Shown here in pieces: positions 1 to 43,172 of a stretch of DNA of 64,000 nucleotides. Within the stretch, counting starts at the first letter, position 1; the number at the start of each line of letters is the position of its first letter. Made by a program: the position numbers and the translations under genes. This DNA comes from Psammoneis japonica (lineage: Eukaryota), in NCBI GenBank assembly GCA_008632985.1, contig QPGO01000244.1, forward strand, positions 29,916 to 93,915. The letters are read 5' to 3'. The notes beneath the pieces are model-generated. The model was not told the origin of the DNA and did no database searches. It was given only the letters and a program-made list of their open reading frames with translations.

Positions 1-224
1 CACGCTGGACTTTCTCGTTGAAAAGTGTGCTTCCATGGACGTGACCCAAAAGATTGGCAAGAGTTTTTCTCTCGGCGAACGCAAGGATGCAGATTGGGGT
101 GGCCTTCAACAGTTTCAACCGCCCGATGAACTCTTTACGAGTCACCGCCGAAAGAATGCCGAAATTGACAAATCCCTCAGTTTGGAGCAATTCGTGGGTC
201 TTGCGAAGATCTTTGATGATCTCT

Positions 225-571
225 TGTGACAATGTTCACATTTGCATGTTTTTACAACAACATCGGACCTCCACGATTCCAACCAGAGATCCAAGATTCG
301 AACCCCGTGTGCGATGCTCAGTCTGAATCCCGCGGAAGCCGAGTCACGAATGCGATGTTTGTTCCTGGCTTCGCGCTTGTTCAACTTCGCGTTTCCTTTA
401 GATGGCAGCTGCATCTGCTCACAAAAACTGCTCATGATCTTTCTGGTGCACTGATTGTCACCTCTCTGCTTTTGGTTCAACAAAGTTTGCCGATTGATTG
501 TTGTGTCGCAATCACAGCTTTCAATCACTGAAAGTGCAGACGAATCTTAGAATTCCGACTGCTTTCCCACA
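225..571 (+). repeat. 5' LTR of element 1 (347 bp)
   Basis: Direct repeat of 6429-6776. Confidence 0.97.
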
Positions 572-645
572 CGCTTCCTCTGCGAAATCTGCAAGTTAAG
601 TCAATCGATCTTAAGCTCTCGATTCCACTTTACTCTGCTGTCACT

Positions 646-2140
646 GTGGTCACGCAGACACGAACCACGGCTGCTCTGGCTGCCTCTGTTGCAGCTCCCG
701 CTGCTGCACCCGCTGCAGCTCCTGCCACTGCTGCTGCTCCGGCAACAGCACCTGCTCCTGCAGCCGCTCCAGTTGCTCCTGCACCTCCCCCAGTCGTTCC
801 TCCCGGTGTGCCTCCAGGAGGAGGTGGAGGAGGAGGCGGAGGTGGAGTCCCACCAGGTGGAGTCCCGCCAGGTGGACCACCATTGGCACCTGTGCCACCA
901 CTGCCGATCTTCGCGTTGACTCCAGGTCAACACCGTCCCAACAACTTCATCGACTGCGGCACATCGCAAGGCCTCAAGCTTTGGAACGCCGCTGCTGCAC
1001 CGCTGCCGCACGAGTTCAACGGCGATTCAGAAGGTCTCAAACGGTTTTGTGAGACACTCAGTCAACGAGCTGCCGAGGCAGGATGGAAAACAGGGGCAGG
1101 AGACATGCTTGCCATTCCCAACGCGAATGGAACTCCACGAGATCTCATCTCCGAGTGCGGACCACTCACTCTGCAGGATGCAAAGAACCCACGCGAACAC
1201 CTTCGCGAATCTGCCTGCGCGACAAGCACAGAACAATGTGCAGATGGCCGAGGCGATCTCTCAATCCCTTGCGGAGGAAGCAAGAGACAAGATGTTGGCT
1301 GAGATGGATTCCCATGCGATCAATGGAAATCAAATCGGCACACTGTTCTTCAAGCTGCTTGCGCAAAAGGCCATCGTTGACACACGCTCCACCACCAACT
1401 GCTTCCGCGAGAACTTGTCAAGCCTGGATGCCTGCATGGCGGCTGTCAGCTCGGACATCGAAGAGTTCAACAAGTGCGCCAAGCTCAACGTTGACGGACT
1501 CCAAGCTAGAGGAGAGCAGTGCGACGACCTTGTCATGAATCCATTCAAAGGATGCGCCGCAGCTGCTGACGAAGCATTCGTCAAGCACATCATGTTGCAC
1601 AAGGACAGGCACGACGACGGTGAGGAATTCACACCGACGCAAATCATGACGTTGGCACTGAACAAATGTGCTGACCTCAAGCGCGAGAAGAAGTGGGGAG
1701 CACTGTCACCGGCTGAAGAGCAAATCGTCGCGCTCACAGCCAAGGTAGACTCCATCAAGGATCAGAACCTTCAGCTGTCTAAAGCTTTGAAGGCCAAGGC
1801 TGGTTCAATCAAGGAAAGAAGCACACGGTCAAGGAAGACCAAGACCACTCCACGTCAGAGACAGAAAGCGGACGAAGCCTGGAAGAAAGTCCCGCCTGAG
1901 GAGGACGCTCCTAAGAAGACAGTGAACGGTCATCAGCACTGTCACAAGCGCGTCAACAATCGCGACTGTCACTGGTGCCCATGTCACACTGCTTGGGTCA
2001 TACACTTGCCTGATGATCCGGGCAACCAAGGCTGTAGACTCCGCAAGCAACAGTCTGCTCCATCCACAGACACGTCGGACAAGAAAGTCTCCTTCGCAAG
2101 TGCTGTCTCCACCATCCTAAACGAAGTGGATCAAGAGTGA
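646..2140 (+). pseudogene. gag of element 1 (one frameshift near 1185; start reads GTG)
   Basis: Ala/Pro/Gly-rich N-terminus, FALTPG..IDC..QGLKLW motif and C-terminal HWCPCH..W..H....C knuckle; contains no Tyr. Confidence 0.8.
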
Positions 2141-5100
2141 CTGCTCTGCAGGTTCACTCTGACACTGCTGCTGTCCTTGCAGATGGCCGTCACTGTGTCA
2201 GTGCTCCTGACAGCGGTCGCTGGCGTCATGAAATGTGCAGCACCGATCTGGATCATGCTGCCATTCATGATGCTGTCCCTTCCTTCAGAAAAGTGTAAGC
2301 GCCTGTCACATGCCGCAATGACGCTGGGTGAGTGGGTCATCTCACATGTCCTGGCTGAACCAGGCACAAGACGAGTTAAGACTTGCCAGCGACGGCCAAC
2401 GACGAGGTGCTGCGCACGGCATCATACGTCGACGAGGCCAGGTCACCGCTCCAGAGTGGCCACCAAAAAGGCTCGCTATGTCATTACGCGATGCAAGACG
2501 GTTAGAGCGTACAACTCAACCACACCATGCCGTCCCGAGCGAACGGAGCCCACTTACGATTCGGACTCATTCGTAATCGGTGTCGACTCACATTCTTCCT
2601 GCACCATGTCCAACAACGAGGCACACTTCATTGGTCCTCTTCGCAAATCCAACAAAGTGGTGCTCGGTGTCAAGGGCTACTTGCGTGCTAAGGGAGAAGG
2701 AACAGTGCAGTGGGCAATTGAGGACGACATGGGACGAGTGCACAGCATCAAAATTCGAGACGCGCTACTCGTACCGGACTTACCTCATTGTCTTCTCTGC
2801 CCGCAGCAATGGAGCCAACAAGCTAATGACCACACGCCAGAGCCTCACGGAACCGTATCTTGGACTGGGGACGATGGACTATTACTGATGTGGGACCAGC
2901 GCAAGTACCATCGCCTGATTCCATGGTCCGCCAACTCTAATGTCGCCAAGATGCGCTCCGCACCCGGTTCCAACAAATGCCGGACCTTTGCAGCCACTGT
3001 CGAAGAACAAACCGACATCGAAACTATCGAGCACGTGGCCCATCAAGCTCACATCATACCACCAGACGACGAGAGTATTGCGAATGATGACGAGGCTGCA
3101 ATTGATACAGACGTCTTCAGCAGTCCATCCGAGACACGTCCTTCCGAGACGCAAGACGCACGCAACACTACTGATGAGGATGCTCCTGTCTTATTTGAGC
3201 CAACAGACGGAGCAAGTCGTTCAGACTCAGACGAGGAAAACCTAAGGGATTTCACGACACCGGAGGTACAGCAGGACTTACCGGAACCCATCAACATCAT
3301 ACCAAATGCCACAGATGACCAGGGTGAACTATTGCGTTGGCATTGCCGCCTGGGCCACATGTCATTCAAAATGATAAAGCTATTGGCCGCCCTAGGCATT
3401 CTACCGAAACGCCTTACAAAGGTACACAACCCAAAATGTGCCGGCTGCCTATACGGTGCCATGACGAAACGACCATGGCGCTCCAAGTCCAAGCGGAACC
3501 GACGAATCCACTTGGCAACTTCGCCTGGAGAAGCCGTATCCGTCGACCAGCTCGAGAGTCCTACTCCTGGATTGATCCCACAGCTCAAAGGGAGACCTGC
3601 CAAACAAAGGTATCGAGCAGCGACAATTTTTGTTGATCATTTCAGCGGATTGGGATACACACATTTGCAGAAAGGACTTACCTCAGTCGAGACGCTCGAA
3701 GCCAAGCACGCTTTCGAGGCATTCGCACGCCGGATGCACGTCCGTATTCAACACTACCACGCCGACAATGGAAGATTTGCTGACAATGCTTTCATACAAG
3801 ACGTCAAGAAGCAACAGCAAACAATATCCTATTGTGGGGTCAACGCCCACTTCCAAAACGGCATCGCGGAGAAAAGAATAAGGGACCTCCAAGAGCAATC
3901 TCGGAAGCAACTCCTACATGCAAAAGTGAGATGGCCAACGGCTATTGAGTTGAACTTATGGCCAAGCGCTCTCAGGAACTCAAACGAGATCAAGAATCAC
4001 TTACCGAATCACGAGGACGGCTCTTCTCCGCTGGAACGTTTCTCGTCCGTCAAGGTCCAGCCTAATCTCAAACAACACCATACCTTCGGCTGTCCCGTCT
4101 ACGCCTTGCACAACCGGTTGCAGGGAGGAGGTAGGCTGCCTAAGTGGGACCCAAGGGCAAGGTTAGGAATCAATTTGGGACCATCAACAAGACACGCAGG
4201 TTCAGTTACCTTGGTTTTGAATTTGCAGACCGGACTCGTATCGCCGCAATTTCACGTACAATTTGACGACTTCTTTGAGACCGTTCGTCCATCTGCTGGG
4301 AATCCTCCTACATTCTCACAATGGCAAGGCATTACAGGTTTCAGACAACTCAAGACAAGGAGTACTTTCAACATCTTTGGGAAATCAAGTGATGTACCGG
4401 TTGAGGGATCAGTCCCTACCACAACGGAACCACCTGAGCCGAATTCGGATGTCCCGTCTCAGCTGCTGCATCCTACTGATACGTCTACCACTGATGACTC
4501 ATTTGATAATGCCCAACCGGATGATGAAATGCTATACACGCCTCCAGATGATTCTGACGCACCATCTGAGCCACAGCGCACTATGGGTCAACCCAGTACC
4601 AGCAGGTCCGGCCGACAACGACGCCCGACCGAAAGGATGCGCGAGAGTCAACTACAAAGGGCTCAAGGCATTGTCTCCTACCATGCAGAGGCAGAGGCAT
4701 ATTATGATGCGATGCACGAGGATGATTACAAACTGCAGGACGACATGGACTCACCTATCTCTTTTCTGGCCAGCTCGGACCCCGACACCATGTACTTTGA
4801 TCAGGCTATGCGTGAACCTGACAGAGACGAATTTATCAAGGCCTGTGTTAAGGAGGTCAATGATCATATTGAAAGGAAACATTGGATACTCATTCCAAGA
4901 GAGGACGTACCTGACGATGTTGATGTTCTCCCTTCGGTATGGTCTATGAAGCGCAAAAGAGATATTAAGACCCAAGCCGTCTACAAATGGAAGTCCCGAC
5001 TTAATGTGCACGGCGGAAAGCAAGAGTATGCTGTCAACTACTTCCAGACCTACTCTGCCGTGGTCTTCTGGTTCACTGTCCGGCTCCTATTGATCATTGC

Positions 5101-6385
5101 CATTCTTAAGAAGTGGCATACACGCCAAGTCGACTTCGTTCTGGCGTATCCGCATGCCGATATCGAATATGATATGTACATGGAGTTACCTGCAGGAATT
5201 GAAACAAAATGTGGCAATGGTAAGACTCATGTTCTGAAGTTGCTCAAGAACTTATATGGACAAAAGCAAGCAGGGAGAGTGTGGCAAGAACACTTACGTG
5301 ATGGATTGTTAAGGATTGGTTTCGTACAATCGGCGGTTGATGAGTGCCTGTATTTTCGTGGCAATGTCATTTTCATTCATTATGTCGATGACGGTATCTT
5401 TGCATCCCCTGACAAGTCTGCTATTGACAAGGCGATACAGGATATCAGAGATGAGAATTTTGATATTGATGATCAAGGCACTCTGGACGACTATCTCGGT
5501 GTCAACGTCGAGACACTACCAGACGGCAGAATGAAACTTACCCAACCTCACCTTATCAATCAGATACTGGAGATGGCCAATATTCCAAAGAGACTACCAG
5601 ATAAGTCTACTCCTGCTCCTTCCTCCAAGATCCTCCACAGGCATATGAGTAAGCCTGCTTTCCAAGAGAGCTTTCATTACCGATCCATCATCGGCAAGCT
5701 CAATTTTCTGGAGAAGAGCACTCGACCGGATATCGCTTACGCGGTGCACCAAGTCGCACGCTTTTCTTCCGATCCCAAGGTTTCTCACGGTGAAGCCGTA
5801 CTATGGCTCTGTAAGTACCTAAGGTCAACCAGAACTGAAGGTATTATACTACAGCCCTCAACGGACAAGTCCCTTGAAGTTCACGCCGACGCGGACTTTG
5901 TGGGCAATTGGAATAAGCTGACTGCACCCAATGACGTCGGCACTTCCAAATCTCGAACTGGGTTTGTCATCACCTATGCAGGATGTCCGATTGTCTGGAC
6001 GTCCAAGCTACAGACTCAGATCGCGCTCAGCACTACTGAAGCTGAATTTATCGCTCTTTCGGAAAGTCTTCGAAGCGCCATCCCAATTATGAACCTCATT
6101 CAAGAATTTATGGATTACGGTCATAATGTCCCTTCCAAGACACCAGTCGTACATTGTAAGGCTTTTGAAGACAATTCTGGAGCATTGGAGATCGCGAGAT
6201 TGCCTAAGATGCGTCCTCGGACAAAACACTTCAACCTCACTCTCCACCACTTTAAAGACCATGTTCGCAAAGGTCTCATATCAATCCTACCAATTGATAC
6301 GGCGGATCAGATTGCAGACATTTTCACCAAACCTCTACCACAGAATCTCTTCGTTAAACACAGGAAATCGCTCCTTAAGTGGTAA
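2141..6385 (+). CDS. pol: pol polyprotein of element 1 (protease, integrase, RT, RNase H), open frame
   Basis: GVDSHSS protease-like motif, WHxRLGH...CAGC, integrase VDHFS/ADNG/NGIAE, RT YVDD, RNase H DADF...STTEAE...EDN...ADIFTKPL. Confidence 0.95.
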   Translation: MLCRFTLTLLLSLQMAVTVSVLLTAVAGVMKCAAPIWIMLPFMMLSLPSEKCKRLSHAAMTLGEWVISHVLAEPGTRRVKTCQRRPTTRCCARHHTSTRPGHRSRVATKKARYVITRCKTVRAYNSTTPCRPERTEPTYDSDSFVIGVDSHSSCTMSNNEAHFIGPLRKSNKVVLGVKGYLRAKGEGTVQWAIEDDMGRVHSIKIRDALLVPDLPHCLLCPQQWSQQANDHTPEPHGTVSWTGDDGLLLMWDQRKYHRLIPWSANSNVAKMRSAPGSNKCRTFAATVEEQTDIETIEHVAHQAHIIPPDDESIANDDEAAIDTDVFSSPSETRPSETQDARNTTDEDAPVLFEPTDGASRSDSDEENLRDFTTPEVQQDLPEPINIIPNATDDQGELLRWHCRLGHMSFKMIKLLAALGILPKRLTKVHNPKCAGCLYGAMTKRPWRSKSKRNRRIHLATSPGEAVSVDQLESPTPGLIPQLKGRPAKQRYRAATIFVDHFSGLGYTHLQKGLTSVETLEAKHAFEAFARRMHVRIQHYHADNGRFADNAFIQDVKKQQQTISYCGVNAHFQNGIAEKRIRDLQEQSRKQLLHAKVRWPTAIELNLWPSALRNSNEIKNHLPNHEDGSSPLERFSSVKVQPNLKQHHTFGCPVYALHNRLQGGGRLPKWDPRARLGINLGPSTRHAGSVTLVLNLQTGLVSPQFHVQFDDFFETVRPSAGNPPTFSQWQGITGFRQLKTRSTFNIFGKSSDVPVEGSVPTTTEPPEPNSDVPSQLLHPTDTSTTDDSFDNAQPDDEMLYTPPDDSDAPSEPQRTMGQPSTSRSGRQRRPTERMRESQLQRAQGIVSYHAEAEAYYDAMHEDDYKLQDDMDSPISFLASSDPDTMYFDQAMREPDRDEFIKACVKEVNDHIERKHWILIPREDVPDDVDVLPSVWSMKRKRDIKTQAVYKWKSRLNVHGGKQEYAVNYFQTYSAVVFWFTVRLLLIIAILKKWHTRQVDFVLAYPHADIEYDMYMELPAGIETKCGNGKTHVLKLLKNLYGQKQAGRVWQEHLRDGLLRIGFVQSAVDECLYFRGNVIFIHYVDDGIFASPDKSAIDKAIQDIRDENFDIDDQGTLDDYLGVNVETLPDGRMKLTQPHLINQILEMANIPKRLPDKSTPAPSSKILHRHMSKPAFQESFHYRSIIGKLNFLEKSTRPDIAYAVHQVARFSSDPKVSHGEAVLWLCKYLRSTRTEGIILQPSTDKSLEVHADADFVGNWNKLTAPNDVGTSKSRTGFVITYAGCPIVWTSKLQTQIALSTTEAEFIALSESLRSAIPIMNLIQEFMDYGHNVPSKTPVVHCKAFEDNSGALEIARLPKMRPRTKHFNLTLHHFKDHVRKGLISILPIDTADQIADIFTKPLPQNLFVKHRKSLLKW

Positions 6386-6428
6386 GACGTTTTCGAGTCA
6401 TCATTCCACCCGACATTGTTGAAGGGAG

Positions 6429-6776
6429 TGTGACAATATTCATATTTGCATGTTTTTACAACAACATCGGACCTCCACGATTCCAATCAGAGATCCAAGA
6501 TTCGAACCCCGTGTGCGATGCTCAGTCTCGAATCCCGCGGAAGCCGAGTCACGAATGCGATGTTTGTTCCTAGCTTCGCGCTTGTTTAACTTCGCGTTTC
6601 CTTTAGATGGCAGCTGCATCTGCTCATAAAAACTGCTCATAATCTTTCTAACGTACTGATTATCACCTCTCTACTTTTGGTTCAATAAAGTTTACCGATT
6701 GATTGTTGTGTCGCAATCACAGCTTTTAATCGCTGAAAGTGCAGACGAATCTTAGAATTCTGGCTACTTTCCCACA
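6429..6776 (+). repeat. 3' LTR of element 1 (348 bp)
   Basis: Direct repeat of 225-571, followed by the TSD. Confidence 0.97.
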
Positions 6777-7854
6777 TCTCTACCTACATGACTGTAGTGT
6801 GAATGGCCAGTGTTCGGCCCTCTTTTGGAAAAAGTCGCCCTACGATCCACCTCAAGACCAGCACTTTCGCATGCCATCCGTCGTTGGCAGCCATGATCTT
6901 TTTCAACGTCTGCCCAAGTCTTCCCATGCCAACACATGGCCATCGTCATTTGTTGGTCGAAAGGGTGCCAATTCCAAACTTCACATTGATTCTGCCGCGA
7001 GCTCCTTTTGGATGTACCTCATTTCGGGACGAAAGCGCTGGGTCCTCTACGACCAAGCCGAACGGCCCTTTCTCTATGAGCACATTCAAACAAATGCCTT
7101 TGTTGCCGATGTGCTCGCACTGAACAGCACATCTAATGCGGAGCACCAGTCCAAGATTTATGACTATTTCGATGCCACCTTCCCGTTGATTCGTCGTACA
7201 CAAGGCAAAGCCTATGAGATCGTTCAAGAAGCGGGACAGTTGATTTACATTCCACCCAATTCTCCTCATGCTGTGTGAGCAGCCCTTTTGTTCTGCAGCT
7301 GCATCTTGGAAAGCCTTCTGCAAGGCTGATCCACAGGCATCCGTCACAAACAAGACTCGCTCAACCTTTCCATTGCCCCTTTTTCGTTCTTTTCGTTTCG
7401 TTCAGGGAAAACCTTGACGACGTGGTTGGAGTTGCCTTCAACAGCATGCCTCGAGCCGGTGTTGTGCAACACATTCATGAAGAAATTCATCATGAGCGGC
7501 GTTGTGATGATGTCGAATTGTCACTTCGTTATTTGAAGGAAAACAAAAAGAAGAACGGCTTTAAGCCTGTCGAATCGGCAGATCCATTGCGCACCACTCT
7601 GGGTGAATTCACGGCTCAACACCAATGAGGAGGACATGTGTCGGCTTGCAGACAACAGAACAGCATTCATAATTCTAAATTTACTTTGCCACATCCGGAA
7701 TGTTGTCTCTCATTTTGAACTAAAAACAGAGTTAAAGAGCCCATTGAGAAGAAGTGGGAACAGCAGCAGGAGGCACAGAGGAAGCTGCAGAGGCGGAGGA
7801 GCAGAAGGGACGCATGACGAAGTGTGTGGGGCGACGAGCAGAAGGGATGGGAGA

Positions 7855-8103
7855 NNNNNNNNNNNNNNNNNNNNNNNNNNNNNNNNNNNNNNNNNNNNNN
7901 NNNNNNNNNNNNNNNNNNNNNNNNNNNNNNNNNNNNNNNNNNNNNNNNNNNNNNNNNNNNNNNNNNNNNNNNNNNNNNNNNNNNNNNNNNNNNNNNNNNN
8001 NNNNNNNNNNNNNNNNNNNNNNNNNNNNNNNNNNNNNNNNNNNNNNNNNNNNNNNNNNNNNNNNNNNNNNNNNNNNNNNNNNNNNNNNNNNNNNNNNNNN
8101 NNN
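7855..8103. other. Assembly gap (N run)
   Basis: Run of n. Confidence 1.
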
Positions 8104-8299
8104 AGCAGAGGAAGAGGACCAAAGGGGTCAGGCTGGGAGCAAACAGAGGAGAGCAAAGAGGAAGCGATGGCAAAAGAAGCCGAGAGTGCCGAGGTGATCA
8201 TCAGCAAAACAAAGGAGAAAGATGCCATCATTGTTGAGCAATGCAACAATGAGGGAGCTGTCAGATGAAGGAGTGGAAGGTTCAAGAAACTTTGATCTC

Positions 8300-11960: not shown

Positions 11961-12138
11961 CCACCTCTGTTTAAACTGCATCATTTGCTTCATTTGCACA
12001 CACAACCTGCTCTGCACCCGCCACTCTTCTCATTGCCAGCTGCAACAAAGAGTGGCCAGGCAAGGGAAATGAGGAAACCAAAGATGACACCTGAGGCTCA
12101 CAAGCAAGCAGAGAGTCTGTTGCATCAAGTGACAATGG

Positions 12139-15100
12139 TGACAGGATTTGAACAGGATTTGGGTGCGCGCAAAATGTCGCGCACTATTTAGTTTGCCGCG
12201 CACAGTTTTGTGTGCTTTAGTTCCACGCGTTCGCACACGATGCAGTTTGCTTTCGAGCCACAAGGCTCACAAGAATGATGACAGTAGCCCGATTGTGCTG
12301 ACTTGCATGTCTTTCGGCTCCTGCAACGGTCTCTGAGTGGAGACTCATCTGCCATTTAGACAGCAGCAAGGAGTCATTGTTTGAATTCTTGCCATTTGCC
12401 TTCAATTTCTGTCAGATGGGCAGCATTGCTGGCAACGACGTTCGCGTCATTGCATGCACCTCTCGCCAAGTCGACGTTCAGGGCATTGACGACCATCAAT
12501 TGGTGGACATCCCCATTGTCACCGCTGGCACCGTCATTGAGACACAGCATGGTCCCGTTGTTGCCATCCTCCATCAGCACGCATGCACGGGAAAGGGCAA
12601 GACCATTCATTCCTGTGGCCAGCTCGAATGGCACAAACACGATGTCAATGATCGCTCTGTCAAGGTGCCCAACGGCTTGCAGCGTGTTGCCACACCTGAT
12701 GGCTGTGTCATCCCAATTGACATCAAGGGTGGCTTGCCTTGTGTTGCCATGCGGCCCCACACTGACGACGAATGGGACACCCTGCCACATGTCATCCTCA
12801 CCGGAGATGACACATGGGACCCTTCCGTCCTCGATCACTCTATCACTGACAACAACCAGTGGTGCGACGTGATCTCGGACCCACAGGACGATCCCACTGC
12901 CAACCTGTTTGATGAGTGTGGCAACTGCCGTCACCATGTCGTTGTCAACAAGGCTGTCATGTCTGCCTCCTTGTCTGCCGATCACGCGTCCGCCCTCGAT
13001 GACCACCTCATTCCGAATGAAGACGTCTTCTACGAGTGTCATCTACACGCGATTGACCCCAAGGATGGTGACGTTCCGCCTCCGGAGCGCAATGTGCAGC
13101 CCACGGACCCCCCCTGCGAGTCTCTTTGGCCCCACTTTGGTTTCCAACCCACCGACACGGTTCGTCGTACTTTCGACTGCACCACGCAATGCGCCTGCAT
13201 GCCCGCCGGCACGCACCTTAAGAAGGCCTACAAATCGCCCAACCCCGCCCTTAATGTGCACCGCCGCAACGAGCCCATCGCCACTGACACCGTTTGTGCC
13301 GACACCCCGGCCGTTGACTCTGGTTGCACCAGCGCCCAACTGTTTGTTGGTGCCGAGTCTACCATCACTGATGTCTGCGGCACCAAAACGGACAAAGAGT
13401 TTGTCAACACACTTGAGGATCAGATCCGTGAGCGTGGTGCTCCATCCAAACTCATTGGCGACCGTGCTCAAGTTGAGATCAGCAACAAGGTGCTCGGGAT
13501 TCTATGAGCCCTCTTTGTCTCCAGCTGGCAAAGCGAGCCTCACCAGCAACACCAAAACTTTGCCGAACGTCGACACCAGACTGTGAAGTGCATGGCGAAC
13601 ACCGTCATGGACCGTTTCGGTTCACCTGCCCACACATGGCCACTGGCGCTCATGTGCATGTGCTTCATGCTCAACCACACAGCATCCCCACGTCTCCACT
13701 GGTGCACGCCCCTCGAGACTCTCACTGGCTCCACCCCGGACATCAGCCCATTGCTTCGCTTTCACTGGTGGGAACCCATGTGCTTCCACCTCGATGACTC
13801 CGATTGGCCGTCTGAATCCCATGAGTTGCGTGGACACTTTGTTGGGATTGCTGAGCACGTCGGCCACCAGATGATCTTTAAGATTCTTTCTGACGACACT
13901 CAGAAGATCCTCTGCCTGTCCAATGTACGTTCCGCTGCTGCCGATCCTTCCGTTCGAAACCTGCGTCTTGATCCTCCTGATGGGGAGCCACCTGAACCCA
14001 TCATCAAATCTCGCCATGACGACAACCCCGTCGATTCACCTGATGGGGAGATCAGGACACCCAAGGTGCCAGTCTTTGATCCGCAAGACATCATCGGATG
14101 CACCTTCCTCATGCAGCCACAAGAGGACGGACAACGCCACAGAGCTCGCATCATCAAGGCCGTCGAAGATCACGACTGGAAAGTGAACGGCAACCCTGAG
14201 CTCACTAAGTTCATCTGCTCTGTCAACAACGATGAATACGAGGAAGTCCTGGCCTGCAATGACATCATGAATCACATTGAGCAAGAAGACGAAGACACTG
14301 CTGTTTGGAAATTTTGACGCATTGTGTCACACGAAGGACCTCTGAAGCCTCATGACCCAACCTGGAAAGGCTCAAGCTACAACATTGTGCTTGAATGGGA
14401 AAGTGGGGAGATCACGTCCGAGCCTCTTGCCATCATCGCCAAGGATGGCCCTGTCACCTGCGCCATCTGTGCACAAGAGAACGGACTTCTCGACACTGAT
14501 GGCTGGAAGCGGTTCCGCACCATCGCGAGGCGCCAGAAGAAGCTGTTCCGCATGGCCAACCAAGCCAAGCTTCGCTCCTTCCACACTGCACCTCGCTGCA
14601 AGTGCAGACACGAAGTTCCCCAGAACTGCAAACATGCCATGTCACTAGACGAACGCAATGGCAACCGCAAATGGGGAGACGCAACCAATCTCGAGATGGA
14701 CCAACTCGATGAATACGAAGTCTTTCATGACTGCGGGCCCTCCGAGTCTTCCACTCCTCCTGCGGGACACAAGAAGATCCGAGTGCACCCAGTGCACGAC
14801 GTGAAACACGACGGCCGCCACAAGGCACGACTCACAGCCGATGGACACCTCACGGACGTGCCCATCGACAGTGTCTGCTCCGGAGCAGTCTCCCTTCATG
14901 GCCTTCGGCTGATGATTTTCCTGGCCGAACTCAACGAGTTGGAGACATGGGCCACCGACATTGGCAATGCCTGCCTTGAAGCCACCACCAAGGAGAAGCT
15001 GTACATTGCAGCTGGACCCGAATTTGGCAAACTCGAAAGCCACATTCTTGTCATCCACAAGGCCCTGCATGGACTGCGCAGCTCCGGCCTCCGCTGGCAC

Positions 15101-16601
15101 GAGTGCTTCGCTGACTGCCTGTGAGCTGAAGGTTTCTTCCCCTGCCACGCGGAACCTGACATTTGGATGCGCAGGAACGGCGACCACTGCGAACATGTTG
15201 CCGTTTGTGTGGATGACCTCCCCATTGCCATGAAGGACCCTCAATCTTTCGTCGACACTCTCACGGAAAAGCACAAGTTCAAGCTCAAGGGCACGGGACC
15301 GATTGAGTTCCATCTAGGCTGCGACTTCTCCTGGGATCCTGACGGCACCTTGTGCCTGTCTCCGCGCAAGTGCATCGAATGCATGGTCGACAGCTGCACA
15401 TGACTGTTTGGGGAGAAACCTGCCACCAATGCCCTGTCCCCTCTGGAGAAGGGTGACCACCCCGAACTGGACACTTCTGAACTGCTGGGGCCCGATGGCA
15501 TTCAACAGTTCCAGTCTCTTGTTGGTTCCCTCCAATGGGCAGTGTCCCTTGGTCGAATTGACATTGCCACGGCCGTCATGTCACTCTCTAGCTTCCGAGC
15601 TGCGCCCCGTCAAGGCCACTTGGATCGTGCCAAACGTGTCTGTGGGCACCTCTCCAAGATGCGACACGGCTCTCTCCACGTTCGCACGGAAGAGCCCGAC
15701 CATTCGGATCTCCCTGCACCGGCCTGTGAATGGATGCATTCCGTGTGCGGCAAAGCAGAGGAGATGATCCCGAAGGATGCTCCACCGCCCCTTGGCAAGT
15801 TTGTCACTGCCACCCACTACGTCGATGCAAACTTGCATCATTGCATGCTCACCGGACGCTCTGTCATGGGAATGCTCCACTTCCTCAACAAATTCCCGGC
15901 TGATTGGTTCTCTAAGAAGCAAGCCACCGTAGAGACTGCAACCTGTGGGTCTGAATTTGTTGCCGCAAGGACTTGTGTTGAGCAGATTGTCGACCTGCGC
16001 ATCACCCTGCACTGCCTCGGAGTCCCGATCCGTGACATTGGTTGCATGTTCGGTGACAACAAGTCGGTTGTAGACAGTGCCACCATCCCGCACTCCAAGT
16101 TACACAAGCGACACACTGCGCCATTGTTCCACCATGTGTGTGAGGCAATTGCCTCTGGTTTCCTTGAGCTCCACTTCATCGAAGGCTCCCGCAACCCTGC
16201 TGACATTCTCAGCAAGCATTGGGGTTGCTCCCAAGTCTGGGACCTTCTCCGCCCCCTCATGTTCTGGAACTTCATTCCATCCGAAGTCGAATCTGTTTCT
16301 GTGACTCCTCAAGCAAACTGGGGAGTGACAGGATTTGAACAAGATTCAGGTGCGCGCAAAATGTCGCGCGCTGTTTAGTTTGCCGTGCACAGTTTTGTGT
16401 GCTTTAGTTCCGCACGTTCGCATGCGATGCAGTTTGCTTTCGAGCCACAAAGCTCACAAGAACAATGACAGCAGCCCGATCACACTGACTTGCACGTCTT
16501 TCGGCTCCTGCAACGGTCTCTGAGCGGAGACTCATCTGCCATTTAGACAGCAGCAAGGAGTTGTTGTTTGAGTTCTTGCCATTTGCCTTCAATTTCTGTC
16601 A
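12139..16601 (+). mobile_element. Ty1/copia (CoDi-like) element 2: gag-deleted, degenerate pol
   Basis: 276-bp LTRs at 12139-12414 and 16326-16601; TSD AATGG at 12134-12138 and 16602-16606; pol motifs IAGNDVRVI, IATDTV, DVKHDGRHKARL, VCVDD, VDANL, GSEF, NPADILSKHW with internal stops. Confidence 0.95.
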
Positions 16602-18069
16602 AATGGTGTGACACAGGGATGAAGCCAAACATCCTGTGCTTGGTGGCAACAACCCAAATCCATCAACATCATTTTGAGTGCAAAAGCCAAACATCCTGTG
16701 CTTGGTGGCAACAACCCAAATCCATCAATGCATGGTGTGCTGTCAGAGCCATCACCAAATGGTGGCTCTCTCCAAGTCTGTGAACACTGCAGCTTTTCCT
16801 TGAGTCTGCCTCCTGGTGTGAGCAAGGGCATGGGTGCATCTTGCTAAGATGGCACATCCCTGACATTCAGGTGCAGTTTCTGCACAGAGCCTGGCTCCAA
16901 TGCCTTGTTGTACAACCCTGTTGCTCATGCCATGGTGCCAATGATTCAAGCAGACAGTGCATTGCTGTCCATTGTCTTGGGTTGACAGACGCAGCGTGTG
17001 TGTGTGTTGCTCACTGAACAGCTGCAGGAACATGAAAAGAAAAAAAAAGAGATGCAGATCTTTTGAAAAAGCAAAGTGTGAATCCAATGGAAATTTCTTT
17101 TGGGAGGAAGAAACAATGATGTGCTTGAAAATTTTGAAGCCACTTTTCTGAAAGAGAAAAAGAAAAGAGTGAAGCAAAGAGAGTGTGGCAATGAACCAGG
17201 AGTGTCATCAGGGCATTGTTGGTGTGACAGCATGCCAAAAGCAGCAGCAATGGGAAAGCAGCAGTGGCACAAATTGGGGCATTGTTGGAGTGACAGTGCA
17301 CAGCGTCAAGCACGGGAAAACAGCGGCGACGTGCGCACGCGCATCGCTGCACTCTCCACCATTGTGTGCTCTTGCACCACACAACAGAGGTCTCAGTGAC
17401 ACAGAATGGCAACCCTGTTTGTCACCTGGAAGCTTTTCATGCACAATTCGAGTTGCCACAGCTTCAGCCCTTTGTCTCAAAAAATCCAAAGGAGAGACCC
17501 TTTGCACACAGATGATTCGGCGCATCATGCTTTGCTCTTTGTGCTTCTCCACAGTGCAAAAAACCAAGTGTAGAGTTGTGGCTGGCACAACGTGACCCCT
17601 CCCAACAATGTCCCGAGCGCTGGTGTGACAACTTGCAGCACCTGCTAGCTAGAGTGGAGCTAGCTAGCTGCTAGAGTGGCAGCACCTGCCATTTTTGGCA
17701 ACAGCCTTTTTTGCAAAATGCGCGATCGACCCACTGAATGGGGGCGTCTTGCTGGCGACCGTAGTTGAAGATGGTGAAGCTTACGTCATAGAAACGCCAC
17801 CACACACTTTTTACTTATGAAACACCAAATGGCTTACTTAAGGACATGACATACGTCACCATCCACACTTTCGAACAGCACTCTCTAGGAGGGCCCTACT
17901 TTTCTACATACTGTACTGTAGTGACTGTCAATCACATACCGTACGGTACGACGATGATGTCACAGCACACAACGCAGATAGAACTCAATATCCCAAATCT
18001 GCCGCACATCATTATTCTGTCTTCTTTCCTTCTGGTTGAGAATGCGATGGTGTTGACCGATACTTCACC

Positions 18070-35461: not shown

Positions 35462-38400
35462 ATGATGTTGTCACTGTTCATCCTCGCCTTGTCCCTGGTT
35501 CTGTTGCCCTGCACCTCGCAGCCAGAGCTCATCAGCAGCTTCGACAGCTGCACCGCGATGAACAACTGCCATGTCAACAAGGTGCTGCTGCTCATCGGTC
35601 CATGCGGCCTCAACTCCCACAACACCTGCACACCAACCCAAAATCCAGAGTTTGCCGGCAAGCCAGGCCGTCCGGGCGGGCCCGCTGGGCTGAAGCTCTA
35701 CAAACCTTTCGAAGACCCCAAAGTCATCGAAAAGGGAAACATCGCCGAAGGCAATTCTTTCATTGATGATGAAGACAACGAAGAAGGCAAGGAGGAGGGC
35801 AAGGACTTCTTGGGTGCCAATGTCCAGGTAAAGGGCGTCAACAAGGCCAACATTGTCAAGACTGATGGTGAGATGGTGCATGCGATCTTGGGCTCAAAGT
35901 TAACTGTCATCAAGGTCCTCAACGAGGGTGGGGGCGGAAGAGTCACTGGAACAATCCAACTGCCCACCCGCCCGGACGACATGCTGCTCGAAAAGAACTT
36001 TGTCGTCGTCATTGGTTGCGACCGTAACTGCAAACACAAGGTCCAACGATGGTGCAGACGCCATCCATCGCGTGGTGAGGACTCGACTGTTTTGTGCCAA
36101 ATCCGCATCAAGAACTACAAGCCGAAGCTGATTTCAACGCTTCATCTTGAAGGATCATGCGTCAAGGCACGTGAAACAGACGGCGTTGCACAAATCGTGA
36201 TCAAATTCAACCCTTTGCAGTCCATCTGGCTGCACAGGCCCAACCGCACATGCAAGTTGGATCAGACACTCAAGTGGAACCAGGAGATCATTGAATGCTC
36301 AAGGGCTGGGAATTGGCTGCCAACCTGCAAGCTTCAAAAGGGAAAGCAAACACAGGTTGGCGTGTGCGGGTCATGCAGTGACCTGCACCATTCGCCGGAT
36401 GTGTTCTCGGGCTTTTCGATGCTCTCAGCAGTGACGCTGCCACTCAACAAACTCATGACTCCAATGTCATCAAACTCAATTGTCTCTGACACTGAGGCTT
36501 TGCATGTGACCAAGCAGTTGATGCATGTGACGACCAACGAGTTCCAATTTGGCAATGTGCCCAACAGCGCCAACCGTTGGGGTCCGAACTGTCAGACACA
36601 TGTCCACCAATTTAGCCTGAGCGAAACGGGGGTGACACACAGAGCATCTGGTCAAATCACCGCAAGCGAGTGTGCTTCACTGCCCGAACAGATTTCAACG
36701 CGTGGCTTTGCTCAAGTCTTGTCTTTGTTTGCTGCTTGCAGGGTGGCGTCCTCAACCGATTCTCCATGCACGAGAACGACGGCCACTTCTTCATTGCGTC
36801 GACCGTCGGGGCCTCTTGGTGGACGGGGCGGTCACTCAGCGAGAGCAGGGTCACTTCATTCAAGATCAACGACAACAAGGGCTTGCTGAAGCCTGTGGGC
36901 CTTGTTGAAGACCCAGGCGTCGGCGAGCGCATCTTTGCGGCGCGACATCATAAGGACATTGCATGTGTTGTGACGTTTGGGGAAACGGATCCGCTCTGTG
37001 TCATCGACTTGGCAAATCCAAAGAAGCTTGAAGTCAAGGGAGAGCTCAAGATCCCTGGCTTCAGCGCGCATCTTCACAGAGTGGAGGATGGGAGAGTCCT
37101 CGGTGTTGGAAAGGACGTGGCAAATGGAAGGACATTGGGAACCAAGGTGTCGCCATTCAACATGAGCGATGAAACAAACCCGAAGGAACTGTCAGTGTGG
37201 ACACTCCGAGGAAGCTGCTCCGAGGCTGAGTGTTGGAAATGGTGAATTAGAAGTTCAAACATCAAAACTAGACAGCGTGAAGAAGACGCACGTGCCAGCG
37301 CTCATGTGCTCCACGTGAAGCAACAAAACAGCCGATGGAAGCAGTCATTGTTCTCTTTTGACTCTTAGAAAGCATTGTGATAACAAGCTTGTCTATTTCA
37401 GCCTCAGGATCAGACCTTAGAGGACTGAGGTGGCTCTGGAACAGTCACCAGAAGGATAAATTGCAACAGTTAAAAGAGAACAATCCAGCTGAGAGCTGTG
37501 AAAAGAAAGTAAGAAAGAAAAGAGTCATTCTCACGGTGTGAGACATTTTACTGCTTTGCCTTTTTTCATCATGAGCGGAAGAGGCAAAGGTAGAACTGGC
37601 AACAGAAGCCAAGGAAAAGGAGCCTCAGGAAGGGGAAACAAGAGTGGCAAGCAAAGCCACAAGGGCATCAATGATTGTGTCCACTGTGTTGGAAGTGCCA
37701 AGCAAGCATCTGATTTTCAGATTGCCACTGAGTTCATCATCAACTACATTGAGAAGACTCACGAGTTTGGAAATGACATTGCAACTGCACTCAACACTTG
37801 CACTCCATGTGACATGAGTTCTAAGAAGCCGACTTTGCAGGTCAGCTTGACTGGAGATGACAAGGTGGACGCGCCATTGAACAAACAGCATGAAATTGAG
37901 TTCAAGACAGAATTTGATGCTCACGTTAAGAGGACCCAAACTTGTGAGAACAACCTTGTCAAGGCTTGTGCTTTGCTCTGGGAGAGATGCTCCAAGGCCA
38001 TGAAGAACAAGATTCAAGCAAGAACCGAGTTCCAAACCAAAATTGAAAACGATCCCATAAAATTGCTCAAGGCCATTGAGGAGCATGCATTGAACTGCCA
38101 AGAGCACAGGTGTGACATGGCTGTCATCTCAGATTCAATGAGAGCGGTGCTGGAAACCAAGCAGAAGGAGAAGGAGAGTCTCCAAGATTGCGCCAAGAGA
38201 TTCAGGGTTGCAAGGGACATCATGAAGTCTCACATTGGAGGACCGATTGTCCTCACCAAGGCAGTGCAAGGCATGTCAGAATGTGACGAGCACAATGCAG
38301 ATTCTATCAAGAAGTGTCAAGAAAAGGCGTTCAGCCAATTGATGGGTTGCATGCACTTGGAGAACGCAGACCAGCGCAAGTGCGGATCAATTCTAACAGG

Positions 38401-41400
38401 ATTGAACACTCAGCAGTCCTTCAAGAATGACCAATGTCCCAAGTCTGTTGCGGAAGCCAACACGGTGTTGAGCAACCACACTTTTGACTACGTTGGTCAG
38501 CCTGACAACTGCCGCAACAGAAACAATCGAAACAACAACTCTGACTCCAAGAAACAAGAAGGAAACCAAGAAATCACGCTGTCCTTCGCTCAGTTAGAAG
38601 GCAAGTGTTGCTGCTGTGGCAAGGCCAGACACAATTCCAACAAGTGCTGGGAAAGGCAAGGAAAACCTCAAGCAGAATGGGCCATCAACAAGGCCAAAGC
38701 TAAGCAAGAAGCAAGCAACGCTCAGGCAAGTGACGATGCCAGTGCAGCCAACTCTTCTGCCAAAGAATCCACTGGAACAAAATCTGCTGTTTCAGGATGG
38801 GCTGGCACACACATCGATGCATCTCTCTGCCAGGATCAATCTGGCAGCATGAGAGACTGGATTTTATTGGACAACCAGTCCACAACCACAATCTTCTGCA
38901 ATGAGAAGCTTGTTGCAGACATCCGTCCATCGGATGAAGCCATGCGTTTGCACACCAACGGCGGAGTCCTAGTCACGACATGCAAGGCCACGGTGCCAGG
39001 GTTTGGTGAGACTTGGTTTAACCCAGATGCAATCACCAACATTTTTGCTTGCTCTGACATGAAGAAGAAACACAGAATCACAAGTGATTCTAAGCAAGAC
39101 AACGCATTCACCGTTCATCTCCCCAACAAGAAGGTTGGGTTTGTGGAGGACGGAAAAGGGCTGCACTTTTACAAGCCCAAGACAAATGACACTGGAACTC
39201 AGCTCCAATTTGTGCAGAGTGTGGAAGAGAACAAGAAGTTCTACACTCCACGACAGTTCGAGAAAGCCAAGAGGGCTAGGGAATCATTGCACGCCTTGGG
39301 AAACCCAGCCGTGAATGATCTGAAGGCCATCATTCGCATGAACAGCATCAAGAACAATCCCGTCACAACGGAGGATGTAGATTTGGCCAAGAAGATTTTT
39401 GGAGCAGACATTGGAAGTCTAAAAGGCAAGGTCACAAGGAAGAAGCCGGAGCCAGTTGTAGAAGACTACGTGGAGATCCCGAAGGAGCTCAACACAAGGT
39501 CACTCTTTGCCTGGACGGTCTCAAGGTGAATGGATTGCCATTCCTCACCACAGTGTCACGAAACATTTTTTATCGCACGGCACAACCGCTCAAGGACTTG
39601 ACCCAACCAACTCATCAAGAAGCTCTGGAAGATGTGCTGCAAGTCTACAACAAGGCCGATTTGAAGGTCACACGCATTCGTTGCAACAACGAATTCAGGC
39701 CCATTGGGAATGCACTAGAAGACAAGTTTGATCTCAAGATGAACTGCGCAAATGCTCAGGAGCATGTCCCAGAAGCCGAAAGAAACAACCGAGTTATTCA
39801 AGAACGTGCCAGGGCAGTCTATCATCCGCTGCCATTCAAGCATCTGCCAAAACTCATGGTCGAAGTCATGGTCACCGAAGCTGCTGAGAAGCTCAATTAT
39901 TTTCCAGCCAAGCACGGCGTTTCCAAACATTACAGTCCAAGAATGATTCTCCATCAAAAGAATCTAGACTGTGACAAGAGCTGCAAGATCACGTTTGGCA
40001 CTTGTGTGCAAGCTCACAATGACCCGGACCCCAAGAACACACAAGAGTCACGGACCTTGGATTGCATTTGTTTGCGCCCCACCAACAGCAACCAGATTGG
40101 ACATGAGTTGCTGCACTTGCAAACCGGCAAGAAGATCACTTGTCACAAGGTCACCCCTGTGCCCATCACTCCCGCCATCACAAAGCAGGTTCATCGTTTG
40201 GCTGAAATGAACAAGATGCCCAATGGTCTCAAGATTCAGAACCGCACTGGAACTGTTTTGTACAACAGTGCTTGGCTTGCAGGAGTGGATTGTGATGAAG
40301 ATCAATTTGAAGACGAAGATTGTGATCTAGAAGAAGACATTGAAACTGAAGACGATGAGGAAGAAGAGCTGGACTGGGGAGACCATGACAGAGTTAGTCA
40401 AGAAGAGCTGCAAGACATAATTCGAGAACAAGAATTGGATGAAGAAGCCAGCCACATCAGTGAAGAACAAGACGAGACTCAAGAAGAAACCTCCAATGAT
40501 GAGCATCTCGGAGACAATGACGAAGTTGGTTCTCAACCATCAGACGGCAGCGGAATTTTCACAAGAAATCGATGACATGATTGACCACATTGATGAACAA
40601 CAGAGGCTGGAACAAGAGAAGGAACACTCTCCGGAAGTGCAAGAGATCATCAAACGAAATGAAAGACCTGGAACATGAGGATGAATCTGGAGAGGAGCAG
40701 AGTGAAACCGAAGAAAGTGTCCAAGAAGAGCCTGTTGCTGCTGTTGCTACATCCAGGGCAGGAAGGACTCTGAAACCTCCAGTTAGATTGGGAGACTGCC
40801 AATGCCATCTACAGACTCAAGCTCATTCACAAGAAGAAGAGCACAGCTTAGAAACGGCCAGAATCATGGCCATGACAATGTGTCAGTGGAACGAGAAGGT
40901 TAGCACGATTTCCACTGATGAAGAAGCACATCAATTTATTCAGACTTACAGCTTGGCACGAGGACTCCAGAAGTTTGGAGAAGAAGGCCACAAGTCGGCA
41001 GTGTCAGAGCTGAAGCAAATCCATGACAGAGTGGTTTTCAAACCCATTCACATCAATGACATGACTCCTCTGGAGAGGAAGAGAGCCATGGAGAGCCTCA
41101 TGTTTCTCACAGAGAAGAGAGATGGACGAATCAAGTCAAGGTTGTGTGCAAACGGAAGCACGCAACGAGAGCACATGGACCAAGACGAAACCGCCAGTCC
41201 GACAGCATCCACAGAATCTGTTCTCATTGCAGGAGTGATTGATGCTGAGCAAGGCAGAGACGTTGTGACAGCGGACATCCTGAACGCATTTGTGCAAACG
41301 GACATCGAGGTCAAGGATGAAAAGATCATCATGAAGATCCGTGGAAGGATGGTGGACATGTTGCTGGAATTGGATTCAGACACTTGCCAGGACTGCGTCG

Positions 41401-43172
41401 TGTGCGAAGGCAAACACAAGGTTCTCTACGTTGAAATGTTGAAGGCACTCTACGGAATGCTGGTGTCCTCCATTCTTTGTTGCAAGAAGTTCCGCAGAGA
41501 CATCGAAGGAATCGGATTTGAGATTGGTCCTTATGATCCATGTGTCGCCAACCGCATCGTGAATGGAAAACAACACACGGTGACATGGCATGTGGACGAC
41601 TTAAAGTCTGGTCACGTTGACAGCAAGGTCAACGATGAATTCAAGATTTGGTTGGACAAAACTCATGCGGATGAGATCGGAAAGGTCAAAGTCACGCGTG
41701 GAAAGAGGCACGACTGTCTAGCCATGACTCTAGATTGCTCCATTCCAGGAGCGCTGCAAGTTGACATGGTGCTTTGTGTGCAAGGAATGGTCAAGGAGTT
41801 CTTCAAGGAATTCCCAGAAGAATTGTCGGGTGACGTGGATTGCCCGTGGAGCGAGAAGCTCAACAAGGTGGATGAGACAGCCAAGAAATTAGATCTCAAG
41901 CATGCTCGAGCATTTTGCACTTTTGTGATGAAGGGCATGTTTGTGTGCAAGAGAGCCAGACAGGACATTCAGCCTGGCACTGCTTTTCTCTCCACCAGGG
42001 TCAAGGATCCGAACGAATCGGACTGGCCAAAGCTGGTGAGGCTCATGAATTTCCTCAAGACAACCCAGCTTGATGTCGCAGTCATGTCGGCTGGAGACAA
42101 AGTCATCATCGAGTGGCACACGGATGCCGCACTCGCAGTCCATCCGGACTGTAAAAGTCACACAGGTTCTGCCATGACCCTTGGAAAAGGTGTCATTGCA
42201 TCAGTCAGCATGAAGCAGAAGATCAACACCAGGAGTTCTACAGAAGCAGAGTTCGTCGCAGGCGACGATGTTTTGGCAAAGGTCCTTTGGACCAAGCGAT
42301 TTGTTGAAGCTCAAGGTTTTGAAGTCGAGCGTAACATCATGCATCGAGACAACCAAAGTTGCATGAAACTAGAACAAAATGGAAAGGCCAGCTCGGGCAA
42401 ACGCACGAGACATTTCAACATCAAGCATTTTTACATCACTGACCTCATCAAGCGAGGAGAACTTGAGATTAAGTTCTGCCCAACGGACAAGATGATGGCA
42501 GATTACATGACCAAACCAGTGGTTGGTAAAAAGTTCATCATTGATCGTCAAGCCATCATGAACATCCAAGTGCCTGAGATGGTCAAATTTGGAAATAGCA
42601 AGAATCTTGTCATTGGTCAGCAGGAGTGTGTTGGAAATGGTGAGTTAAAAGTTCAAACATCAAAATTAGACAGCGTGAAGAAGACGCATGCGCCAGCGCT
42701 CATGTGCTCCACGTGAAGCAACAAAACAGCCGATGGAAGCAGTCATTGTTCTCTTTTAACTCTTAGAAAGTATTGTGATGACAAGCTTGTCTATTTTAGC
42801 CTCAGGATCAGACCTTAGAGGACTGAGGTGGATCTGGAACAGTCACCAGAAGGATAAATTACAACACTGAGTGGGACAACCGAGCATTCTTGCACTGGGA
42901 AAAAGCTGAAACTCGACATCATGCCGCTTGTGATTTATGGATGTAGAACTTTTTATGGCGCCATTGTCCTCCAAATTGCCGACAAGAAGATTGTTGAGAT
43001 CGGCCGTGTCCAGCACTTCATTCCTGGACGCCGTTGCCATCCGCGAATCCTGAGAAACCTCGTGACAGGAAAATTCTTGTGGTCCATGTCGTCAGAGCAG
43101 CTCCAAATCAACGAACTGGAAAACATCGAAAAGAAGAGAGGCACTGTTGGCATTGCGCAACATTGGATGTGA
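35462..43172 (+). pseudogene. Beta-propeller-domain protein gene (Beta_propel family-like) split by copia element 3; parts at ~35462-36661, 36742-37230 and 42872-43172
   Basis: Motifs NVQVKGVNKANIVKTDG, GGVLNRFSMHE, ERIFAAR...VVTFGETDPLCVIDL.NP..L...GELKIPGFSAHLH. The frame resumes after the TSD as SEAE|WDNRAFLHW. Intron at 36662-36741. Confidence 0.85.
37231..42866 (+). mobile_element. Full-length Ty1/copia element 3 (gag-pol from ATG 37571, frameshifts near 39490 and 40570)
   Basis: 238-bp LTRs at 37231-37468 and 42629-42866; TSD CTGAG at 37226-37230 and 42867-42871; WILLDNQST protease, HVPEAERNNR integrase, KALYG/WHVDD RT, SSTEAE...DN...ADYMTKP RNase H. Confidence 0.97.

Follow-up and report, generated by a model that had tools for sequence, protein, structure and literature searches.

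Copia-type retrotransposons of one clade carry, directly after the 5' LTR, a short conserved sequence that is complementary to the D-arm of initiator tRNA-Met (tRNAiMet). We propose that a D-arm fragment of tRNAiMet is the minus-strand primer of this clade, and we put the probability of this reading, which rests on the comparison of sequences, at about 0.8. If true, D-arm priming would here be seen for the first time, and a short piece from the 5' end of a tRNA would have a direct biological role. Two registers of tRNAiMet priming are known, from the 3' end in Ty1 and Ty3 and from the anticodon arm in copia and Ty5, and the D-arm would be a third. The element studied lies in a 64,000-nucleotide stretch of DNA from Psammoneis japonica (the window). 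The interest, in our opinion, is in the clade-wide site rather than in the window copy.

A copia-type element and its primer site

The left end of the window is a complete Ty1/copia (Pseudoviridae) LTR retrotransposon. Its features, with those of the insertion site, are as follows.

220..224, + strand: left copy of the target-site duplication, TCTCT, identical to 6777-6781
225..571, + strand: 5' LTR, TGTGAC...CCCACA, TpA-depleted, a direct repeat of 6429-6776
572..584, + strand: core of the primer-binding site, CGCTTCCTCTGCG, complementary to tRNAiMet 11-24 and, with the CA at 570-571, reaching 25-26
646..2140, + strand: degraded gag region; its two ORFs overlap but differ in frame, and stop codons interrupt read-through
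2177..6385, + strand: pol ORF of 1402 aa, with a protease-like barrel, integrase and reverse transcriptase in that order, which is the copia order
6421..6428, + strand: polypurine tract (PPT), GAAGGGAG, adjoining the 3' LTR
6429..6776, + strand: 3' LTR, with the same terminal CA as the 5' LTR, followed by TCTCT
6777..6781, + strand: right copy of the target-site duplication, TCTCT, identical to 220-224

The element thus has TG...CA LTRs with a short duplication, the order protease, integrase, reverse transcriptase, and a PPT and primer site, all of which are criteria for Ty1/copia. Pfam domains recognized in pol are Pol_BBD (aa 136-212), gag_pre-integrs (381-427), SH3_retrovirus (628-698) and RVT_2 (910-1137). 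The RVT_2 match has an E value of 7.7e-37 and gag_pre-integrs lies upstream of it, while the gag region (646..2140) gave no Pfam family match. The two LTRs (225-571 and 6429-6776) both have TG...CA ends and are 94% identical, and no second copy of the element was found elsewhere in the 64,000-nt window. With its broken gag, the window copy is old and probably dead.

The differences between the two LTRs are directional. There are 21 of them, and 14 are positions where the 3' LTR has TA and the 5' LTR has TG or CA, with none in the opposite direction. The 5' LTR has 3 TA dinucleotides vs 17 in the 3' LTR. TA is nearly absent from window base 1 to about 2400, a tract that includes the left flank, the 5' LTR, the primer site and gag, in contrast to 2400-6900. 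The edge of this tract of directional TpA loss falls inside a single element.

An earlier note on this DNA had claimed that no TGG follows the 5' LTR and that CGCTTCCTCTGCG directly abuts it. Inspection of 572-600 found TGG absent, and the junction proved exact to the base: the terminal CA of the 5' LTR is at 570-571, both LTR copies end in this same CA, and CGCTTCCTCTGCG begins at the next base, 572. This occurrence at 572-584 on the + strand is the single exact one in the window.

Two other copia-type elements, each with an RVT_2 domain, are present in the window.

37230..42866: second copia-type element, with LTRs at 37230-37468 and 42628-42866 ending in ..GCAACA
12138..16606: third copia-type remnant, with LTRs at about 12138-12419 and 16325-16606 ending in ..TCTGTCA

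The second element, too, lacks a TGG after the LTR. It has GTTAAAAGAGAAC there instead, apparently complementary, in the half-tRNA register, to the anticodon arm of a tRNA of the Lys(UUU) type. In the third remnant the LTR is followed by GATGGGCAGCATTGC.

The site in related elements and its match to initiator tRNA genes

A search of a protein collection gave 1506 relatives of pol at E <= 0.001, the nearest with 65% identity. An alignment of 28 pol relatives was then the basis for collecting 79 metagenome loci with 35-61% amino-acid identity to the query. Viral contigs searched with the pol protein and with the alignment contained no relative.

The exact 13-mer is present in 41 of the 79 related loci, where its flanks are unrelated. 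It occurs 42 times in the 482,413 bases of these loci, always on the pol-sense strand and never antisense, while 0.007 occurrences are expected per strand. Five further loci have the site with one edit. Allowing a single edit, the site is therefore conserved, as the earlier note had proposed to check, in 46 of the 79 loci and only ever in the sense orientation. In the other 33, self-BLAST revealed no LTR pair and the site is absent even with 3 mismatches allowed, so that no LTR-internal junction is identifiable. Because no junction is visible, these 33 loci speak neither for nor against conservation of the site, and the clade may include other types of primer site. Many of the 79 loci (L003, L012 and L016 are examples) are circularly permuted or tandem and run from the end of pol through LTR, primer site and gag to the start of pol. 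This is expected if assemblers collapse two LTRs into one, and it leaves few true LTR pairs with their flanks among these contigs.

The site also emerged when no motif was assumed. In a search for 12-mers shared among the 79 loci the primer site ranked first (43 loci), and the junction of the PPT with the start of the LTR, GAGGGAG followed by TGTGA, ranked second, ahead of the other 12-mers listed (29 of the 79). At this junction the window element reads GAAGGGAG followed by TGTGAC. Nothing else in the nucleotide sequence of the clade is conserved as strongly as these two priming sites.

The limits of the site can be read from 35 distinct sequence contexts, 34 from related loci plus the window. 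The bases preceding the site are CA in 34 of 35. The base preceding the CA dinucleotide is A or T in all 35 and never the G that longer pairing with the tRNA would need, and for this reason the pairing ends at the CA. On the other side, the base 3' of the 13-mer is C in 32 of the 35 contexts, vs A in the window copy, and the second base is unconstrained (A in 13, T in 11, G in 5, C in 6). In most relatives, the primer site is therefore 14 bases long, CGCTTCCTCTGCGC.

The complement of the family consensus reads GCGCAGAGGAAGCG, followed by UG opposite the CA of the LTR. We scanned a prokaryote genome collection for the 16-mer TGGCGCAGAGGAAGCG with CATAA nine bases later, which gave four short contigs, and viral contigs for the 16-mer alone, which gave at least 118 loci. 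Together these are the 122 loci listed, of which the four from the prokaryote collection are biased by the CATAA in the search pattern. Among the matches listed, the 16-mer is inside a predicted tRNA in 97 of 122 loci, and the tRNAs that hold it are Met(CAT) in 107 of 109 cases; 104 start with A and 76 have a GATCGAAA T-loop. These figures suggest that the 16-mer is close to diagnostic for initiator-type tRNA-Met.

Two of the four short contigs, L080 and L083, each contain a gene that ARAGORN calls tRNA-Met(CAT), with A1, U72, a GGG/CCC anticodon stem and an A-rich GATCGAAAC T-loop. We take these four features as hallmarks of the eukaryotic cytoplasmic initiator. In both genes tRNA positions 10-26 are GCGCAGAGGAAGCGTG, which pairs without mismatch with the family consensus, CA included. 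L083 also carries an intron-bearing tRNA gene, which indicates that this contig stems from a eukaryotic nucleus and was binned with bacteria by mistake. All the matching tRNA genes lie on contaminant contigs of eukaryotic origin or on viral ones, none of them from a known diatom. When the four prokaryote genomes with the tRNA loci were searched for the primer site, the only matches were those tRNA genes. No tRNA gene was found in the 64,000-nt window or in the 79 related loci. We infer from the primer site itself that the host tRNAiMet has A at position 16.

The earlier note had described a 12/13 match to tRNAiMet. The complementarity holds. The single mismatch does not, since it came from a consensus with C or T at the sixth base, and the tRNA genes examined carry A there, which makes the match 13/13. 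The extension of the match by the terminal CA to the next UG stands as described: with the CA it is 15/15, and the two eukaryote-type initiator genes match at 16/16. The window copy pairs with tRNA positions 11-24, or 11-26 when the CA is included, and the 14-base relatives also pair with G10. A short 5' tRNA fragment, which the same note took to be implied by the site, fits the end of complementarity after the CA in 35 of 35 contexts, which would put the 3' end of the primer at tRNA position 24-26.

The loci with one edit vary as follows. At L021:6643 a C replaces the T opposite tRNA position 16, and L027 (positions 104 and 7265) and L028 (955 and 7984) have one extra C opposite position 17. 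In these three loci the site is preceded by ..TTA rather than ..CA. Positions 16 and 17 are naturally variable positions of the D-loop, and the variants in L021, L027 and L028 may track D-loop differences in the tRNAiMet of their hosts. The difference in L026 and L029 is at the opening base of the site, which faces tRNA position 24. In L019, the match is longer by five bases (CCACT) and reaches tRNA position 6.

The viral tRNA genes were noted in their own right. More than 118 viral contigs (L084-L201), many of them labelled as giant-virus bins, have an initiator-like tRNA-Met(CAT) with the same D-arm 16-mer, often in tandem arrays of several Met genes.

A candidate D-arm primer and its alternatives

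In the mechanism that we propose, the site would pair with positions 10/11-24 of cytoplasmic tRNAiMet, which is the whole D-arm except for position 25, with which G10 pairs on the 3' side. The first base copied from the primer determines where an LTR has its right edge. Since the LTR ends at the same base in both copies (571 in the 5' LTR), the 3'-OH of the primer would be opposite 572, near position 24 of the tRNA. An intact tRNA offers no 3'-OH there, and the primer would thus be a truncated tRNA, a 5' portion of about 23 nt. We infer on these grounds both that a cut tRNA serves as primer and where it is cut. A cut at the 3' edge of the D-stem would produce a 5' tRNAiMet fragment of roughly 23 nt that primes minus-strand synthesis. 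Its 3' end could come from a pre-existing 5' tRNA fragment or from cleavage after annealing, either by the RNase H of the element or by a host nuclease.

The other end of the site suggests how its length may be set. The base that faces G10 is the last conserved one, and this makes the site 14 nt long. The plus strand of retroviruses copies the primer up to a blocking modified base, and yeast tRNAiMet carries m1G9. A block of the m1G9 type to plus-strand copying would give exactly the 14-nt length. We think it reasonably probable that a 5' tRNAiMet fragment of about 23 nt, a length typical of short 5' tRNA fragments, is the natural primer of a large, old copia clade of marine and freshwater protists, with the 14-nt length set by a modified G9.

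There are several other ways to account for the site. A whole tRNAiMet could anneal via a melted D-arm and be cut in place at the edge of the duplex. Either a host nuclease or, in the manner of Tf1 self-priming, the element's own RNase H could make this cut. Such a route differs from the main reading only in the step that makes the 3' end, and we regard it as a genuine possibility that we do not favor. The terminal CA of the LTR is able to pair with UG at tRNA positions 25-26, and this would favor docking of a whole tRNA. LTRs must end in CA regardless of tRNA pairing, however, so the fit may be a coincidence. Internal cleavage of a tRNA has a precedent, as the primer end of Ty5 arises in this way according to the part of a review available to us (PMC5371799). 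It is unlikely that the primer is instead another host RNA with a 3' end that reads GCGCAGAGGAAGCG by chance. The 16-mer is nearly confined to Met(CAT) tRNAs (the 107 of 109 among the matches listed), and the sequence has the form of a D-arm, a stem of 3-4 bp and a 7-nt loop with GG. In addition, the two internal variants of the site sit at D-loop positions 16 and 17.

The conserved string could also serve packaging, dimerization or translation, with priming by self-priming or other means. A conserved hairpin does replace the primer-binding site in the fungal element GalEa, according to the accessible portion of PMC5445492. We nevertheless consider such a function very improbable for our string, which is not palindromic, is identical across elements with differing LTR ends, as would be unexpected under self-priming, and begins at the very base at which the LTR boundary places the start of DNA synthesis. 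Self-priming of the Tf1 type would require a transcript whose 5' end is complementary to the site. No such complement rises above chance level within two mismatches, and the site is constant despite unrelated LTR ends, so this candidate was rejected. Within two mismatches, the reverse complement of the site has only two matches in the 79 loci, both at chance level with 2 mismatches each (L033 and L072). Inside the window element it has none; three 2-mismatch matches on the minus strand lie at 7774-8166, outside the element. A hairpin site of the GalEa type was likewise rejected, as A plus CGCTTCCTC is not palindromic. A conventional site for the 3' end of tRNAiMet was rejected because TGG is missing and because the 11-nt string given for such a site of GalEa elements in PMC5445492 has no match with at most one mismatch in the 79 loci and the window element. 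The last alternative is a chance resemblance in a decayed copy, perhaps made by TpA-to-TpG/CpA mutation. The site does lie in the TpA-depleted tract and does contain one TG. However, the same 13-mer with its TG is present in 41 loci with unrelated flanks, and the 41 exact sites, together with the 46 of 79 with at most one edit on the sense strand only, refute a chance origin.

A D-arm fragment as the primer makes predictions outside the elements themselves. It predicts a specific 5' initiator tRNA fragment of 23-24 nt in diatom small RNA and in virus-like particles. Published data on small RNA from Phaeodactylum (PMC4247016, supplementary Table S3) include a Met-CAT row in which, unlike for most tRNAs, small shares of the reads are at 18, 19, 20 and 31-35 nt. 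Most reads in this row are of other lengths, initiator and elongator are pooled, and the supplement gives no sequences. We take the row as a lead at most. The string of 14-16 nt is, in addition, a sharp signature for finding elements of the clade in metagenomes. LTR pipelines that demand a recognized primer site may drop the whole clade if their check, as is usual, looks for a site that matches a tRNA 3' end. The primer-binding-site filter of LTRdigest was used in one diatom genome paper, according to the portion of it accessible to us (PMC7466962).

Comparison with known priming systems

No description of a D-arm primer site was found in the literature searched, which was accessible in part and did not cover most subscription journals; an earlier description is possible. 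A literature search by sequence strings gave two matches, both unrelated judging by their titles and the openings of their abstracts. The paper on CoDi elements (PMC2806351) makes no mention of tRNA or primer-binding sites. The comparisons below refer to the available portions of the sources cited.

Several systems share one feature or another with the clade. In Ty3 the D arm of tRNAiMet pairs with U3 (PMC5371799), and the extended contacts of Ty1 and Ty3 resemble the site described here in that the D-arm of tRNAiMet is complementary to the RNA of the element (PMC5371799). In Ty1 and Ty3, however, the D-arm contact is auxiliary and the native 3' end primes at a TGG-type site, whereas here the D-arm complement occupies the priming position itself. 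An internal stretch of tRNA-Lys is complementary to the primer site of FunCo1, a fungal copia element (PMC5445492). The clade is like FunCo1 in using the complement of an internal part of a tRNA, with tRNAiMet in place of tRNA-Lys. The absence of a TGG-type site after the LTR is shared with Tf1 and GalEa. In GalEa the final A of the LTR forms part of a 9-bp palindrome, and a second, complementary box completes the site (PMC5445492). Unlike in Tf1 and GalEa, neither a self-complement nor a palindrome is present in the window element. Short tRNA fragments are also known as inhibitors, since 3' fragments pair with primer-binding sites and inhibit priming (PMC7773854, PMC10275265). In contrast to these, the 5' fragment of about 23 nt proposed here would itself be the primer.

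The closest parallel is with the hemiviruses. Drosophila copia and 1731, yeast Ty5 and Volvox Osser use as primer a tRNAiMet that ends within the anticodon stem-loop, at nucleotide 39/40 (PMC1181622; PMC5371799; ICTV profile PMC8515867). Like them, the clade belongs to Ty1/copia and has a site that abuts the 5' LTR without a TGG and is an internal complement of tRNAiMet, for which a cut tRNA would provide the 3'-OH (PMC1181622, PMC5371799, PMC10275265). Compared with the genes of L080 and L083, the site is complementary to an internal part of the tRNA and not to its CCA end, which is one criterion for hemiviruses. The other, priming at nucleotide 39/40, does not describe the clade's site. Unlike the 39/40-nt half-tRNA of copia and Ty5, the pairing here covers positions 10-24 (to 26 at most) in the D-arm, and the predicted primer is about 23 nt long. 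Judged from sequence, the site would be a case of internal-tRNA priming like that of hemiviruses, but in a D-arm register that departs from their defining position in the anticodon arm.
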